From contig NZ_LOHE01000035.1 in the NCBI RefSeq assembly GCF_001559865.1, forward strand, positions 79,134 through 103,133: a DNA stretch of 24,000 nt, written 5' to 3'. Source of the stretch: Abyssisolibacter fermentans (GTDB lineage: Bacteria > Bacillota > Clostridia > Tissierellales > MCWD3). Position 1 is the first letter of the stretch, and each line of letters opens with the position of its first letter. This document shows positions 11,434 to 24,000 of this stretch, in pieces. Under the pieces are notes generated by a model. That model ran no database searches and was not told the DNA's origin. It was given only the letters and a program-made list of their open reading frames with translations. A program made the translations under genes and the position numbers.

Positions 11434-12747
11434 ATGAAGAAAGTAGCAAATATAGTTTTAATGCTAATAATATGTGTAATATTGCTTTTGTTGTATACAA
11501 TAGTGCATGAAGGCGCTCATGCATTTTTTGCGGTTTTATTTGGTGGGCAAATAAGTGAATTTGACATTAATTTTTTAAATGGATATCCACATGTAAGTTA
11601 TTCAGGTATATTTCAGCCATATCAGAAGGCAATTATAAGTATAGCGGGACCAATTATACCGGCTGTTTTATTTTTTATTATCTTATTGTATGTTAATAAA
11701 AGTAATGCTGTAGTAAAAAAAATAAAATTCATAACTGTGATTGGTATATTAGGTACATTATTACCAAATATAATTCTACCTATCATGTATGAAGCTGGTT
11801 TTGATGCCTCCAATGAGGATGTTATAAAATTCATAATAAATTCACAAGTAAACGGTTATTTAACAGCTGTTATTTTTGCCTTGATTTTCTTATTAGGATG
11901 CATTGTCTTTATTAAAAAAATTAATTTAAAAGAAGTCTTAAGTGAAGAAATAAATTTTAATATAGAGAATAAAAAACAGGTTATAATGTTAATTGTTTGT
12001 GGAATATTTACTTTGTTTTTAATTGTTGGAGGTTGCATTAATATACTTACTAATTCGTACGAAGCATCAAGTATGATAAAAAAATATGATGAAAATTTTA
12101 GTATAAAGTTAAACAAAAATCACTACTATAATGAAAATATTTATGAATTTGAAGTAAATGAAGAGGAAATTTATGATTTTTATATTACAGGTAATTGTAA
12201 TGAGAAACTTTCAATAAAACTACAAGGAAATGTTCCAATACAAGGAATTAGAAAAAAAGAGTTACAGTTGTTTAACGGAGAGGGCAAAATCAATAGTACA
12301 TTTACCGGTTGGTTTTTAAATAAAGGAAAATACAAAATTGTTGTGTCATCACATGATAATAATGGGAAAATCGACTTTCATATAAACAAAAAAGAAGCTT
12401 TAGAAAATAAGTTTTCAAATGAAAAAATATTTAATGGGATTATTCCACAATTAGATAATGGATATAAACTTGCTGCTCACGAAAATTTGATTGACTGTAA
12501 AGACAAATGTATTTATGAGTTTTCATTACAGGATACGGAGAATATCAAATTCAGTATTTTTCTTACTACAAAAGATGGAAGTGCAGTAGTTAAGCTATCA
12601 GGGAAAGATTATGAAGATATATTAATTAACGATTACCAAATTTTTACTGATGGTAGAGGAATGAACTTAAAAGAAGGCGATTATAAAATTATGGTAACTT
12701 CAAGTGGTTGTAATGGTGAGATATATTTGTATGTCAAACGTAATTAA
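11434..12747 (+). CDS. polytopic membrane protein with HExxH motif (DUF3267/M50B-like putative zinc peptidase) and duplicated C-terminal beta-rich domain
   Basis: HEGAH directly after TM1 and about 5 predicted TM segments. The C-terminal ~230 aa contains two similar segments (YEFEV..GKYKIVVSSHDNNGKIDFHI and YEFSL..GDYKIMVTSSGCNGEIYLYV). Confidence 0.6.
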   Translation: MKKVANIVLMLIICVILLLLYTIVHEGAHAFFAVLFGGQISEFDINFLNGYPHVSYSGIFQPYQKAIISIAGPIIPAVLFFIILLYVNKSNAVVKKIKFITVIGILGTLLPNIILPIMYEAGFDASNEDVIKFIINSQVNGYLTAVIFALIFLLGCIVFIKKINLKEVLSEEINFNIENKKQVIMLIVCGIFTLFLIVGGCINILTNSYEASSMIKKYDENFSIKLNKNHYYNENIYEFEVNEEEIYDFYITGNCNEKLSIKLQGNVPIQGIRKKELQLFNGEGKINSTFTGWFLNKGKYKIVVSSHDNNGKIDFHINKKEALENKFSNEKIFNGIIPQLDNGYKLAAHENLIDCKDKCIYEFSLQDTENIKFSIFLTTKDGSAVVKLSGKDYEDILINDYQIFTDGRGMNLKEGDYKIMVTSSGCNGEIYLYVKRN

Positions 12748-12748
12748 A

Positions 12749-12847
12749 CCCAAATTATTCATAGAAATCAAATACTTTTTATTAATAACCTCATTCTTCG
12801 AATGAATAAGCGATTTGCATAAAATCCAACAGTGACCATTTTGTGCA
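12749..12847. repeat. decayed copy of the hairpin-module element (left end plus one reverse-oriented module)
   Basis: CCCAAATTATTCATAGAAA (12749-12767) matches the left end of the 19877 element. 12789-12847 is a reverse-oriented module (GAATAAGCGATT core) with a 10-bp hairpin at 12816-12825 / 12838-12847. Confidence 0.6.
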
Positions 12848-18607: not shown

Positions 18608-19876
18608 ATGATTTATAAGATGTATGAGTTGAAAAAATCTGTATCATATCCGTTAATAGTGTTAATCTGTATATTTATAGGTTTTAACTTTTTATTAATA
18701 AGTGAAAAACTCTATGTAAGAGAAGAGCTTGATTCACTAAACAAAATAATAGACGAAGTTGGCTATAAAATAGATGATGAAATGTTAGAAAAACTTGATA
18801 AATATTATAACGATAAACTAAAAAAGTTTAACAATTTAAATCATAAAAAGACCAACAAAATTTATAAAAGTATAGACGATTTTTTTGAAAAAAACAAATA
18901 TCAAATTGAAGAAGTAATGGACGGTTATACGGATGAAGAAAAGGAATTACTTGATGATTTAAGGGTAATAGAGTTTTATTATGATTTGATAAATCCGTTA
19001 AAAGCTCAATATAAAAATATAGACATTATAGAGTTAGGCGAAGAGCAAATAGAAATGAATAAATTATCAGGTCAGGCAGCAGAAACAGTAAGAACTCAAT
19101 ATAGAAAATTTAATGATAGATTTTATGAAATAATTAAGAATAAAGAGCATATAAATTTATTTTTATTTGGCAAGAGTAATAGAATGCATTTATTTCTATT
19201 TAGAGACTTATTAAAAACTATAATGTTTGAAGTGATGATAATTGTAGTATTAATAACTTCTTATTTAATTAATTATGAATTTAATAATAAGACTTTCGTT
19301 TTGATTTACACTACAAGGAAAGGTAGGAATCTTATAAAAGACAAGCTGTTTACAGCTTTGATAATAAGTGTACTAGTTACAACGGTTATAATGGGTATTA
19401 CATTAGGAGTGTATTTTATTGTTTTTGATTATTCAAGGCTCTTAAATGTACCTATAAATAGTGTTTTTAATTGGGAATTGAAGACTCCATTTATGAGCTG
19501 GTTTAAAATGTCCTATGGTAAGTTTTTATTATGTTCTATAGGGCTGGTGTATGCTATAGAATTAGTTTTTGTAGGTATAGCTGTTGTTTTATCAGAGCTA
19601 ATAAGAAATAATTACGTAGTATTTTTTGTATTTTTGATTTTAGCAGGTATATGCTATATGCTTCCTTCGATTATACCAGGAAGTACAAAGCTTATATTTT
19701 TATCAGTATTAACACCTTTTTCACTTGTGTGGGGTTCAGTATTTTGGTTTATGGAAAGTGGAGCACTTACAATAATTAAATACTATGAACTGATTACACT
19801 AGGCGTTTGGGCTTGTATATTGATTATATTAATAAAACTATGTATAAAGAGATTTAAGCATCAAAATATATATTAA
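18608..19876 (+). CDS. ABC-2 type permease with a large N-proximal soluble loop
   Basis: N-terminal TM segment, ~170-aa hydrophilic region, then 5-6 TM segments. YTTRKGRNLIKDKLFTALI is shared with the next permease. Confidence 0.75.
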   Translation: MIYKMYELKKSVSYPLIVLICIFIGFNFLLISEKLYVREELDSLNKIIDEVGYKIDDEMLEKLDKYYNDKLKKFNNLNHKKTNKIYKSIDDFFEKNKYQIEEVMDGYTDEEKELLDDLRVIEFYYDLINPLKAQYKNIDIIELGEEQIEMNKLSGQAAETVRTQYRKFNDRFYEIIKNKEHINLFLFGKSNRMHLFLFRDLLKTIMFEVMIIVVLITSYLINYEFNNKTFVLIYTTRKGRNLIKDKLFTALIISVLVTTVIMGITLGVYFIVFDYSRLLNVPINSVFNWELKTPFMSWFKMSYGKFLLCSIGLVYAIELVFVGIAVVLSELIRNNYVVFFVFLILAGICYMLPSIIPGSTKLIFLSVLTPFSLVWGSVFWFMESGALTIIKYYELITLGVWACILIILIKLCIKRFKHQNIY

Positions 19877-20173
19877 CCCAGATTATTCATAGAAAATTAT
19901 GAGCAGGGAACTAAAATCTGTGATTTTATGTGAGTCGCTTATTCATATGAAGGAACTGAATATGAGATTCATTAATAAACATCCTTCTGATTATAAGATA
20001 TCCATTAAATTCTCGACATACCAACTTGGTATGCCTTCGAATCTAATTTAAAATGTACCTCAGACTCATTACTTCGTCTGAATAAGCGATTCACACTAAA
20101 TTAAAATTTAGGTTCTCTGCTCATAATTCAGAAACTTACAGCATATTATGGGGCGTTATATGAATAATCAGGG
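19877..20173. mobile_element. 297-bp non-coding MITE-like element carrying two inverted hairpin modules
   Basis: TIRs CCCAGATTATTCATA (19877-19891) and TATGAATAATCAGGG (20159-20173) match 14/15 as reverse complements. Flanked by ATTAA on both sides (19872-19876, 20174-20178). Internal modules at 19899-19966 (+) and 20058-20124 (-). Confidence 0.75.
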
Positions 20174-22591: not shown

Positions 22592-23260
22592 GTGAGTGAA
22601 GTGAACAAAGAAAACAATGCTTTTTGTTCCTTTAGTGGGGGTAAGGATTCTTGTCTTGCACTACATAGAGCATTAAAAGAAGGAATTAAAGTGAAATATT
22701 TATTTACAATGTTTAAAGAAGATGGACAAAGATCTAGAGGACATGGTTTAAAGCCTGAAATTATAAAAAAACAGGCTGAGCTTCTTGATATGGACTTAAT
22801 TTATGGAGAGGCTACATGGGAAGACTATGAAAATGTTTTTAAAGAAAAGATGTGTCTATTAGAAAAAGAAGGAGCTAAAATAGGTGTATTTGGAGATATA
22901 GATATAGATGACCATAGAGAGTGGGTTGTAAAGGCATGCGATCATACTGAAATAGAAGTATATCATCCTATTTGGCAGGAGAGTAGAAGAAAGTTAATTG
23001 AAGAATTTGTTGATTTAGGCTTCAAAGCTATTATAGTGACATTGAATGGTGATGTTTTGTCAAAAGATTATTTAGGCAGAGTTTTTGATAAAACATTAAT
23101 TAAAGAATTTGAACAACTTGGTATTGATGCATGTGGAGAAAATGGCGAATTTCATACAATAGTTATTGACGGACCTATCTTTAAAGAACCACTAAAATTT
23201 GCACGAAAGGATGTCATTAAAATTCAAAACTATTATATGCTTGATTTGGATTTAAATTAG
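22592..23260 (+). CDS. PP-loop ATP pyrophosphatase of the Dph6/MJ0570 (diphthine-ammonia ligase-like) family
   Basis: SFSGGKDS PP-loop, VFGDIDIDDHREW, HPIWQESR, GENGEFHTIVIDGPIF. The start may be GTG 22601. There is an 11-nt gap to the upstream gene. Confidence 0.8.
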   Translation: MSEVNKENNAFCSFSGGKDSCLALHRALKEGIKVKYLFTMFKEDGQRSRGHGLKPEIIKKQAELLDMDLIYGEATWEDYENVFKEKMCLLEKEGAKIGVFGDIDIDDHREWVVKACDHTEIEVYHPIWQESRRKLIEEFVDLGFKAIIVTLNGDVLSKDYLGRVFDKTLIKEFEQLGIDACGENGEFHTIVIDGPIFKEPLKFARKDVIKIQNYYMLDLDLN

Positions 23261-23944
23261 GTTGTTTCAAAATGGCAAATTTCTGCGTTATTGAAATATT
23301 TCACGACTAATCATGAGCAGCGAACAGAAATCTACGATTTCTAGTAAGTCGCTTACTCCTAGGAACGAAGTGAGTAGTGAGCTACATCTAGTACGCTCAT
23401 ATCTGTAAGCAGAGAACCCAAAATTCATTTTTGGAGTGAATCGCTTACTCAGAGGAAGAATGAGTCTGAGTTTCAAATAATATATAGCCTTGAACTTTAC
23501 TTATTTTGAAACAACCCAAAGAGATGTCTCAAAATAGCAAACTTCTGCGATGAGCAGCGAACAGAAATCTACGATTTCTAGTAAGTCGCTTACTCCTAGG
23601 AACGAAGTGAGTAGTGAGCTACATCTAGTACGCTCATATCTGTAAGCAGAGAACCCAAAATTCATTTTTGGCGTGAATCGCTTACTCAGAGGAAGAATGA
23701 GTCTGAGTTTCAATTAGTATATAGCCTTGAACTTTACTTATTTTGAAACAACCCAAAGAGATGTCTCAAAATGGCAAATTTCTGCGATGAGCAGCGAACA
23801 GAAATCTTTGATTTCTAGTAAGTCGCTTACTCCTAGGAACGTAGTGAGTAGTGAGCTACATCTAGTACGCTCATATCTGTAAGCAGAGAACCCAAAATTC
23901 ATTTTTGGAGTGAATCGCTTACTCAGAGGAAGAATGAGTCTGAG
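23261..23944. repeat. three head-to-tail copies (237-bp period) of a 230-bp TIR-bounded unit, each with two direct hairpin modules
   Basis: ATGAGCAGCGAAC at 23313, 23550 and 23787. GAGTCTGAG ends at 23470, 23707 and 23944. Left ends at 23261, 23523 and 23760; right ends at 23503-23515 and 23740-23752. 7-nt CCAAAGA linkers. Confidence 0.9.
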
Positions 23945-24000
23945 TAAGTGACTCTAACAGTAAGTTTTGTTTATTGACTATATATATTTACTACCTTCCC

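Follow-up and report, generated by a model that had tools for sequence, protein, structure and literature searches.

A tandem array of covarying double-hairpin modules in Abyssisolibacter fermentans: probable member of a new family of non-autonomous interspersed repeats

Small structured repeats such as REP, BOX, ERIC and Correia elements influence how stable mRNAs are, how operons are expressed and how genomes rearrange. For Clostridium sensu stricto and its relatives, which count toxin producers, industrial acetogens and solventogens among them, no comparable family seems to be on record. Here, a module of about 70–80 nt from a 24,000-nt stretch of A. fermentans DNA (the window) is compared with REP/BIME sequences and their RAYTs, BOX, miniature inverted-repeat elements (MITEs), the mini-elements of IS200/IS605 (PATEs), integron attC sites and the Flavo-1 RNA motif (RF01705). 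The region is probably a tandemly duplicated composite of a structured interspersed repeat, which would belong to a new non-autonomous mobile family of the REP/MITE kind.

Like the module, REP/BIME sequences are short, intergenic, high-copy imperfect palindromes that cluster, fold in co-transcribed RNA, combine a conserved hairpin foot with a variable tip and often lie just 3' of genes. However, the module lacks a GTAG (or CGTC) head and has two unlike hairpins instead of one, its inverted pairs are rare (1 of 108 clusters), and no RAYT was found in 1.3 Mb of loci. The hosts differ as well, being Enterobacteria and Pseudomonas for REP/BIME-RAYT and Clostridiaceae and Flavobacteriia for the module. 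BOX of Streptococcus pneumoniae (boxA-boxB(n)-boxC) is similarly a modular intergenic repeat of a Firmicute, with stable structure and no known transposase, and its modules are also combined, tandemly repeated and partly deleted. The comparison with BOX is one of modular architecture, and sequence relatedness is not apparent; BOX is confined to streptococci, whereas the module crosses phyla and is tied to TAA/stop codons. Composites that carry the module are classical MITEs comparable to RUP, Correia/NEMIS, ERIC and bcr1, for example the one at 23257–23519 with its 17-nt inverted repeats. The 70–80-nt module itself, in contrast, has no terminal inverted repeats, and since it is found both alone and inside unrelated MITEs, it is a separate unit and not the interior of one MITE.

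PATEs share with the module strand-specific subterminal hairpins, a fixed short 5' sequence and perhaps both the lack of a clear target duplication and an orientation bias relative to replication, but the hairpins of the module are dissimilar and neither TnpA nor TnpB was seen beside any copy. Integron attC sites likewise form long, imperfect, strand-specific hairpins in which the base is conserved, the tip varies and some bases are bulged, and they are placed in sense on or right after the stop codon of the upstream gene. In the module, however, the cores do not fit RYYYAAC/GTTRRRY, there is no integrase nearby, and upstream lie housekeeping genes (dnaK, htpG, flagellin) in place of cassettes. 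Flavo-1 is a multicopy long hairpin of Flavobacteriia with conserved internal positions, as is the module there, but it has another sequence and model, and the module does not match RF01705. Flavo-1 occurs in either orientation and its function is not known. At an htpG locus, some 60 nt separate one Flavo-1 copy from a module.

A covariance model finds eight full modules (59–82 bits, E 1e-11 to 1e-16) and one degenerate module in the window. The motif TCGCTTAYTC has nine exact matches there, against 1.8 expected with up to one mismatch, and GAGCAGNGAAC has eight matches with up to one mismatch against 0.3 expected. Six of the eight full modules make up a tandem array at 23313–23945 on the forward strand (237 bp × 2.7 copies, 97% identity), in which each unit consists of modules A and B with a TGAGC/GCTCA hairpin between them, followed by a 78-nt spacer. 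The first copy of module A, of the 'ATGAGCAGCGAAC' type, spans 23312–23394 (+, 60.2 bits), with the tip AGAAATC/GATTTCT followed by a hairpin 2 of TTACTC/GAGTAG, and is separated by the short hairpin TGAGCTAC / GTA-C-GCTCA (23378–23399, +) from the first copy of module B (23404–23483, +, 78.7 bits). The latter, of the 'TAAGCAGAGAAC' type, has the family consensus form, with the tip CCAAAA/TTTTGG and a hairpin 2 of CTCAGA/TCTGAG. On the same strand follow A at 23549–23631 (59.4 bits), B at 23641–23720 (76.2 bits), A at 23786–23868 (60.6 bits) and B at 23878–23957 (65.4 bits), the array ending after hairpin 2 of this last copy. The cores and hairpins are where an earlier note on this DNA had put them, but its region 23313–23470 is only the first unit of the array.

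The composite around this first unit is bounded by the left inverted repeat TTAGGTTGTTTCAAAAT (23257–23273, +), which overlaps the TAG stop (23258–23260) of the upstream dph6-like gene, and by the right inverted repeat ATTTTGAAACAACCCAA (23503–23519, +), which is 94% complementary to it. Its left flank is TTA and its right flank CAA, and as DNA it folds with z = −4.3. Outside the array, a single module at 19898–19979 (+, 78.8 bits) sits within a repeat of about 180 bp that also occurs in a second locus (L127), and an inverted single module lies 66 bp from it at 20046–20125 (−, 81.6 bits). The degenerate copy (12777–12823, −) retains the second core and hairpin 2 without the 5' core (16.5 bits, E = 0.05), so that the version of hairpin 1 which had been reported at 12816–12847 belongs to a partial copy only.

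The basic module comprises a 5' flanking TAA/TGA, a long hairpin and a second hairpin, its two cores being TAAGCAG, which heads the module in all copies, and TCGCTTAYTC. At the base of the long hairpin the sequence is invariant: GC-A-G pairs with C-GC around a bulged A, and the TTA within GCTTA is the pairing partner of the flanking TAA. Towards the middle and tip the sequence varies freely while pairing is kept. What the earlier note called hairpin 1 is indeed paired, but it is merely the tip of this longer hairpin, whose foot is TAAGC(A)G / (R)TCGCTTA. The two cores thus pair with each other and are not single-stranded, contrary to that note. Hairpin 2 can pair in all versions, as had been proposed, with the closing GAG pairing with the CTC of the second core as a fixed base while the rest of its stem covaries freely; the two hairpins do not resemble each other in base, length or sequence. 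In type-2 modules, the Watson-Crick pairs TATC/GATAG and TACC/GGTAG stand in place of the GA/GAA 'loop'. Conservation is limited to the hairpin bases and the loops are not conserved across copies, a pattern that fits protein recognition of either nucleic acid.

The structure of the module is under selection. With more than 100 copies compared, pairing was kept in 94% and 93% of cells, as against 27–42% in controls with a slid partner, and changes on both sides were seen at 9 and then, in the alignment with 93% of its cells paired, at 17 of 23 pairs; none of 500 shuffles reached the observed values. The compensatory stem changes that had been quoted from the window, such as AGAAATC/GATTTCT against TAAAATC/GATTTTA, are correct throughout, and all four substitutions between the recent tandem copies of the window fall in loops or a bulge, that is, in unpaired positions. 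The best reading is that selection acts on the hairpins of the top strand; G-T/T-G cells on the given strand number 59, compared with 32 A-C/C-A cells. Both strands of the window unit fold equally well (−47.7 and −47.5 kcal/mol).

An exact core pattern scan matched at least 120 genome loci. Among the matches listed, about 100 come from Clostridium sensu stricto and represent more than 25 species, and a length of exactly 43 nt is common to 101; the family is also found in Flavobacteriia. With the covariance model, the first 100 loci yielded 108 copies and the remaining loci further ones. The module is intergenic (106 of 108 clusters) and non-coding, and only one of the 108 clusters is of mixed orientation. 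Of 78 non-redundant copies, 51 have TAA and 24 have TGA as the 5' triplet (75/78 together), and in 24 of the 120 copies listed this triplet terminates, in frame, an ORF of at least 100 codons (the other frames give 3 and 1). Relative to the adjacent gene, sense copies outnumber antisense copies by 57 to 30, about 2:1, and one third of Clostridium copies are antisense. The top strand is the G-rich strand (lagging-strand template) in 56 of 84 cases, again about 2:1, a bias that is inseparable from gene orientation because only four clusters are informative.

The family is large and apparently undescribed: no published description was found in the literature searched, and Rfam 15 gave no gathering-score hits in the window or on the modules in 31 loci, with only noise at E up to 10. 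The CRISPR-DR3 hits were rejected as a name for the family, being genuine CRISPR repeats with modules inside them. Phage and plasmid origins were likewise set aside, as only 1 of 28 viral pattern hits held a real module and only two Clostridium plasmids matched. A covariance model of the module would annotate many intergenic regions and flag repeats that break assemblies. Moreover, the invariant foot common to Bacillota and Bacteroidota implies horizontal spread or a shared recognition protein.

Evidence for mobility comes from copies that interrupt other repeats. The module sits within members of two unrelated MITE families, and for both families the same genome also contains a copy without it (L046:389–549 vs L046:7022–7247; L030:3760–4040 vs L030:6240–6660). 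Type I-B-like CRISPR repeats are interrupted by modules with the left junction exactly after TTAA, which explains degenerate CRISPR arrays such as those of C. simiarum, and in one case a module is nested in another. The module is shown to be an insertion relative to otherwise homologous sequences. Head-to-tail arrays have units of 71 and 121 bp, the 71-bp units having one TAA in common. Composites A and B of Clostridium have terminal inverted repeats; one composite of about 240 bp has 28-nt inverted repeats and is flanked by TTA or TAA, and most copies of composite A are flanked by TTA...TTA or TAA...TAA. A target-site duplication for the module itself is only suggested: in 29 of 78 copies the 5' triplet reappears 3 nt past GAGTTTC, compared with 1–7 at other offsets; the junction is ambiguous by 1–5 nt in the two filled/empty MITE comparisons. 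Orthologous empty sites were also sought, and the nearest relatives proved 53–76% identical and non-syntenic, with no modules in their loci.

On the favoured reading of a mobile repeat, copies would spread at the DNA level into TAA-containing sites. Among these would be gene stop codons, CRISPR repeats, the loops of other MITEs and the TAA beside an existing copy, and insertion at the last of these would produce head-to-tail arrays. A trans-acting enzyme encoded elsewhere would recognise the invariant hairpin base together with the junction that links the two hairpins, and the element would be handled as a single (top) strand. Co-transcribed copies would fold in the 3' UTR and may secondarily affect mRNA stability, as ERIC, BOX and REP do. 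Against such mobility stand the absence of any transposase or recurring gene in the 1.5 kb around copies, the lack of terminal inverted repeats in the basic module, the lack of a clean junction in the filled/empty pairs and the 2:1 bias towards the sense strand. The earlier note had named a specific agent, a Y1/HUH transposase, beside structured RNA, and the evidence falls on both sides of that choice. If the modules were ends or mini-derivatives (PATE- or REP-like) of IS200/IS605 or RAYT elements, a Y1 HUH transposase would act on single-stranded DNA and insert 3' of a TAA target recognised by pairing with the internal TTA of GCTTA. The constant 5' TAA/TGA flank pairs with this TTA, the left junction in CRISPR repeats of known sequence lies right after TTAA, the basic module is free of terminal inverted repeats, wobble is tolerated on one strand and the window contains one inverted pair 66 bp apart, all of which would suit such an enzyme. 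The placement of the top strand on the lagging-strand template would suit it as well, IS200/IS605 elements reportedly showing this orientation, but the bias is confounded with gene orientation. The left and right hairpins of IS200/IS605 elements are near-identical, whereas hairpins 1 and 2 of the module are dissimilar; the GTAG head of REP is absent, and with 1 of 108 clusters of mixed orientation, BIME/REPIN-type pairs are rare. A tblastn search with an IS608 TnpA query, validated by its 99% identity to the annotated H. pylori TnpA, found no IS200-type TnpA in the 1.3 Mb that surround some 160 loci. When all ORFs within 1.5 kb of modules were clustered, only housekeeping families emerged, and the ORFs adjoining modules without hairpin 2 included no transposases. 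RAYTs, moreover, are rare in Clostridia (PMC6006769), and a Y1/HUH origin is on balance improbable.

The main rival to a mobile repeat is a cis-acting structured RNA of the 3' UTR, which could stabilise the mRNA, signal its processing or bind a protein; its anchoring at stop codons would let terminating ribosomes open or close the element, and the multicopy state in Clostridiaceae would be secondary. This rival is strongest for Flavobacteriia, where every copy is in sense at a stop codon: in all 11 genome copies and in 9 metagenome copies the TAA is the stop of the upstream gene. Among these 20 copies, 11 follow dnaK, htpG or an FKBP-type PPIase gene, 4 follow a gene for an RDD protein and the remainder follow one of four other genes. 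Both stems vary between orthologous copies, with compensation, and at the htpG loci a canonical terminator follows the element. That copies from different genera share a small set of orthologous stop codons, always in sense, looks like conserved function and not like selfish spread. The in-frame stops among the copies listed, the sense bias and the tolerance of G-U on the given strand only point the same way, but a true cis-regulatory RNA is essentially always in sense, and one third of Clostridium copies are not. Copies within MITEs and CRISPR repeats, tandem arrays, conservation confined to hairpin bases and the equal folding of both strands of the window unit also count against an RNA, which for the family as a whole is possible but doubtful. 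It is unlikely, too, that both apply to one stop-codon-anchored element in two phyla, serving as a 3'-UTR RNA at chaperone genes of Flavobacteriia and as a single-strand mobile element in Clostridiaceae with its internal TTA as the guide for TAA; if true, this would be a new class of element between regulatory RNA and transposon, with a putative partner protein. The strict placement on the stop codons of heat-shock chaperones in Flavobacteriia gives a testable lead to a candidate 3'-UTR control element. A coding function is scarcely credible. Module A copies in the window do have an ATG and an open frame, and the ATGAGCAG-initiated frame could give a small peptide of 31 codons from this ATG to the TAA of module B, but the ATG position is TAA in 51 of the 78 non-redundant copies, and with two thirds of copies so changed there is no conserved ORF. 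The differences between window copies are non-synonymous in this frame, as had been pointed out, yet preserve pairing, and a 70-aa minus-strand ORF at 23501–23713 is a repeat artefact. Together with the strong covariation in more than 100 copies, this upholds the original proposal of selection on structure and not on coding.

A self-cleaving ribozyme, a k-turn, a tRNA-like element and a CIRCE operator were also considered and rejected, given the unconserved loops, the absence of Rfam hits and the plain pairs that replace the GA/GAA loop in type-2 modules. Finally, the window contains two copies of a 32-nt repeat, (TAA)CCCAGATTATTCATAGAAA, one at 19864–19895 (+) starting at the stop codon 19874–19876 and the other at 12736–12767 starting at the stop codon 12745–12747; this repeat resembles a module minus GCAGAG.

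The module is a non-coding two-hairpin unit under selection. It is multicopy and intergenic, occurs in some but not all copies of repeats that are homologous apart from it, and is tied to a TAA or TGA at its 5' end. The cores and hairpins described in the earlier note are all found in the window sequence, but folding showed that the two cores, there taken to be single-stranded, pair with each other: (T)AAGC-A-G with C-GCTT(A), closing a long hairpin of which the previously described hairpin 1 is the tip. Hairpin 2 is closed at its base by pairing of the terminal GAG with the last CTC of the second core. Modules of the commonest type have a GA/GAA internal loop that separates base from tip. A second type, found by the covariance model, has Watson-Crick pairs at these positions (TATC/GATAG, TACC/GGTAG or CAT/ATG), which makes the 5' half a single uninterrupted hairpin of about 18-20 pairs that contains a bulged A. 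Invariance is confined to the hairpin 1 foot, the junction and the basal three pairs of hairpin 2, and the loops show no conservation.

The proposal that structure rather than coding is selected was borne out by the covariation among copies. In an alignment of 67 modules, 94% of cells were in standard pairs (28-40% in slid controls) and 9 of 23 pairs had changed on both sides, a count matched by 4 of 500 shuffles; for the other measures, 0 of 500 matched the observed values. Among 108 model-aligned copies the standard pairs reached 93% (27-42% in slid controls) and 17 of 23 pairs had changed on both sides, including all nine of the inner hairpin, with 0 of 500 shuffles matching the observed values. 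Because the search pattern fixed both cores, foot invariance in the 67-module set is partly ascertainment, and it is the positions left free by the pattern, together with the type-2 modules, that argue for pairing. A coding role for the module is highly improbable, since the frame initiated at ATGAGCAG is not conserved: of 78 non-redundant copies, 51 have TAA and 24 have TGA as this triplet. Furthermore, all four within-module substitutions among three young tandem copies in the window fall in loops or the bulge, with an estimated chance of ~0.02 if ~36% of positions are unpaired.

When one genome per species was scanned with the pattern AGCAGNGAAC-N(10-30)-TCGCTTAYTC, at least 120 genome loci matched; as exact cores were required, this underestimates module diversity and copy numbers. 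Of the matches listed, about 100 lie in Clostridium sensu stricto or close relatives (>25 species) and 101 have a length of exactly 43 nt. The covariance model recovered 108 copies from the first 100 loci and another 22 from the other genome loci. Hosts include C. sporogenes, botulinum, carboxidivorans, beijerinckii, butyricum, magnum, drakei, ragsdalei and Haloimpatiens, and C. simiarum, Clostridium sp. OS1-26 and C. aciditolerans are among those with many loci. Outside these genomes the module is rare, with only one viral contig and two Clostridium plasmids. Neither the window copies nor those of 31 further loci matched any Rfam family, and a literature text search that included the core sequence found no description.

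The window itself is AT-rich (26% GC); one of its proteins has 100% identity to an NCBI entry of Abyssisolibacter fermentans, which assigns it to that species (family Clostridiaceae). It contains nine exact matches to TCGCTTAYTC. With up to one mismatch there are 11 (1.8 expected; no shuffle as high), and eight for GAGCAGNGAAC (0.3 expected). Eight full modules score 59-82 bits, and a degenerate one lies at 12777-12823 (16.5 bits, E=0.05). The surrounding genes are ordinary chromosomal ones, such as those for a radical-SAM protein, ABC transporters, an ECF sigma factor, a LevR-type regulator with a cellobiose PTS and a dph6-like ATP pyrophosphatase, and no transposase gene is among those of the 24 kb. 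The segment 23313-23470 is the first unit of a tandem array (23313-23945; 237 bp x 2.7 copies, 97% identity), each unit containing two modules with a short TGAGC/GCTCA hairpin in between; units two and three are recent tandem duplicates. The first unit is bounded by 17-nt inverted repeats (23257-23273 / 23503-23519, 94% complementarity) and folds, as DNA, into a single long structure (z = -4.3). This composite has flanks similar to those of the ~240-bp Clostridium composite. A 70-aa ORF on the minus strand (23501-23713) spans the tandem repeats and is an array artefact, not a gene.

Filled and empty versions of larger elements show the module as an insertion. A ~240-bp MITE of several Clostridium species (L046:7022-7247, L101, L097, L083 and others) has 28-nt terminal inverted repeats AGGCACATGAAAATAAATAACAAGTCC..., the ATGAGCAG module at its centre and 3-bp TTA/TAA flanks, which would presumably fit an IS5/ISL2- or Harbinger-like transposase; the genome with the copy at L046:7022-7247 also holds one without the module (L046:389-549). 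A second, unrelated ~400-bp MITE with long terminal inverted repeats TATAGGATTACAAGTCCGAAAATTGGCTTACACCCCGG... (L029:5950-6420, L030:6200-6670, L039, L053, L090) contains an internal palindrome whose loop carries the module, and again the same genome has a copy without it (L030:3760-4040 vs L030:6240-6660). Both filled/empty pairs deviate by 1-5 nt from a clean junction, whichever model is assumed. One copy of the ~400-bp MITE is an internal deletion variant.

Two CRISPR arrays of Clostridium simiarum MSJ-4 (L098:7590-7870, L048:380-650) have type I-B-like repeats GTTGAACCTTAACATAGGATGTATTTAAAT into which modules have been inserted after TTAA, following GTTGAACCTTAA and GTATTTAA. As the repeat sequence is known, the module's left junction can be placed between TAA and GCAG. 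One module is nested inside another. The leader-proximal repeat is among those hit, and the arrays are degenerate in appearance. In 71-bp head-to-tail module arrays, adjoining units have one TAA in common, as would be expected from repeated insertion beside the flanking TAA of an existing copy. In addition, the 5' triplet recurs 3 nt past GAGTTTC in 29 of 78 copies (1-7 at other offsets), which suggests a 3-bp duplication at the right end, an end less well defined than the left.

Gene context was assessed with simple ORFs of at least 100 codons. Among the matches listed, 106 of 108 module clusters are intergenic, with 57 sense and 30 antisense to the 3' end of the adjacent gene (p=0.005) and 43 to 24 relative to adjacent 5' ends. 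The given strand is the G-rich one in 56 of 84 loci with clear skew among the matches listed, a bias inseparable from that of gene orientation because only four clusters adjoin lagging-strand genes. Non-Watson-Crick cells comprise 59 G-T/T-G and 32 A-C/C-A, most A-C coming from one subfamily with a shifted hairpin 2; this wobble asymmetry leans towards one strand as the folded one. Both strands of the window unit fold equally well.

The 5' triplet, almost always TAA or TGA, is the in-frame stop of such an ORF in 24 of 120 copies (three and one in the other frames), and in four further copies the ORF extends a few codons into the module. The genes ending there are functionally diverse, encoding among others flagellin, a glycyl-radical activase, an aspartyl/asparaginyl-tRNA synthetase-like protein, biotin carboxylase, HypD, ribonucleotide reductase and GlpF. 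Larger module-carrying repeats in the window likewise start on stop codons: the start of the composite at 23257 falls on the TAG of the dph6-like gene, the product of which has a C-terminus of normal length. A 32-nt repeat, TAA-(A)CCCARATTATTCATAGAAA / (TAA)ACCCARATTATTCATAGAAA, begins on the upstream gene's stop codon at both of its sites (12736-12767 and 19864-19895; stops at 12745 and 19874). It resembles a module without GCAGAG, and its copy at 19864 belongs to a ~180-bp repeat found again in another locus, L127.

Among the matches listed, eleven Flavobacteriia genome loci (Flavobacterium, Lacinutrix, Psychroserpens, Polaribacter and several MAGs) are recognised by the Clostridium model at 33-57 bits. 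These copies have TAAGCAGAGAAC and GTGTGAATCGCTTATTC in common, a longer, different hairpin 1 tip and ATTCCGAA/TTCGGAAT as hairpin 2, and a core C-to-T change is compensated by G-to-A in its partner. All eleven are sense, with TAA as the stop codon of the upstream gene: htpG and an RDD-family protein gene in three each, and dnaK, an FKBP/cyclophilin PPIase, an ABC ATPase, an AhpD-like protein and methylmalonyl-CoA mutase in one each. Nine further true copies at the same genes came from an independent scan of metagenomes (dnaK 3, htpG 3, PPIase 1, RDD 1, one cut by the contig end). The recurrent linkages are to dnaK (L033, L154, L157, L160), htpG (L019, L075, L078, L153, L156, L162), PPIase (L037, L155) and the RDD protein (L002, L057, L086, L161). 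Orthologous copies differ between genera in both stems, with compensation, and copies of the same MAG have an identical stem. The L057 contig, from a MAG labelled Bifidobacterium breve, has flavobacterial genes, 33-42% GC and the flavobacterial element form; it was judged flavobacterial since sequence and gene content match the other Flavobacteriia loci, and is probably mis-binned. In three Flavobacterium genomes the htpG module is followed, ~60 nt downstream and on the opposite strand, by the Flavo-1 RNA motif (RF01705; L078:2440-2519, L019:4332-4411, L075:5300-5378), giving this intergenic region two distinct multicopy hairpin motifs.

We consider it rather likely that the module is a mobile structured repeat, moved by a putative enzyme. 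A trans-acting enzyme recognising the invariant hairpin foot and junction would copy it at the DNA level, probably from one folded strand, with TAA as the insertion target. Such a target would account for the stop-codon association, as a TAA stop tolerates insertion without gene breakage, and the flanking TAA, by pairing with the internal TTA, could speculatively read the target in the manner of IS200/IS605 guide-target pairing. That the module is primarily an RNA cis-element is unlikely, its main support being the Flavobacteriia copies, all sense and on the stop codons of the same genes. Selfish spread alone can hardly account for their pattern, and a canonical terminator downstream places the htpG element within the 3' UTR; the copies on chaperone-gene stop codons may represent a 3'-UTR element of heat-shock genes that has not been described before. 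Copies of a mobile repeat that are co-transcribed would likewise fold within the 3' UTR, where they may stabilise the mRNA or take part in its processing, and this may now be their main role in Flavobacteriia. Movement by an HUH/RAYT system, as the earlier note envisaged, is more doubtful still: tblastn with IS608 TnpA, a valid query (99% identical to annotated H. pylori TnpA, matching 2789 plasmids), found no match in the ~1.3 Mb of fetched loci around modules. No protein family other than common housekeeping ones recurs within 1.5 kb of modules, and ORFs adjoining atypical modules encode a pseudouridine synthase, a transglycosylase and CobO. The partner of a mobile repeat could be a single-copy gene outside these loci.

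In behaviour the family comes closest to REP/BIME, MITE and BOX elements, but the module has no GTAG head as in REP/BIME and, when bare, no terminal inverted repeats as in MITEs. Its two hairpins are unlike each other, in contrast to IS200/IS605, and it is without the core sites of integron attC. The family therefore belongs by kind to small structured interspersed repeats and lacks the defining features of each named family tested. What is unusual is an invariant hairpin foot common to two phyla, together with stop-codon anchoring.

Inverted module pairs are rare (1 of 108 clusters among the matches listed). In the window, one such pair encloses a 66-bp segment (19980-20045) immediately upstream of the gene that starts the stretch at 20148; this segment contains the palindrome CATACCAA-C-TTGGTATG, and a promoter-like site (20026-20054) lies partly inside it.
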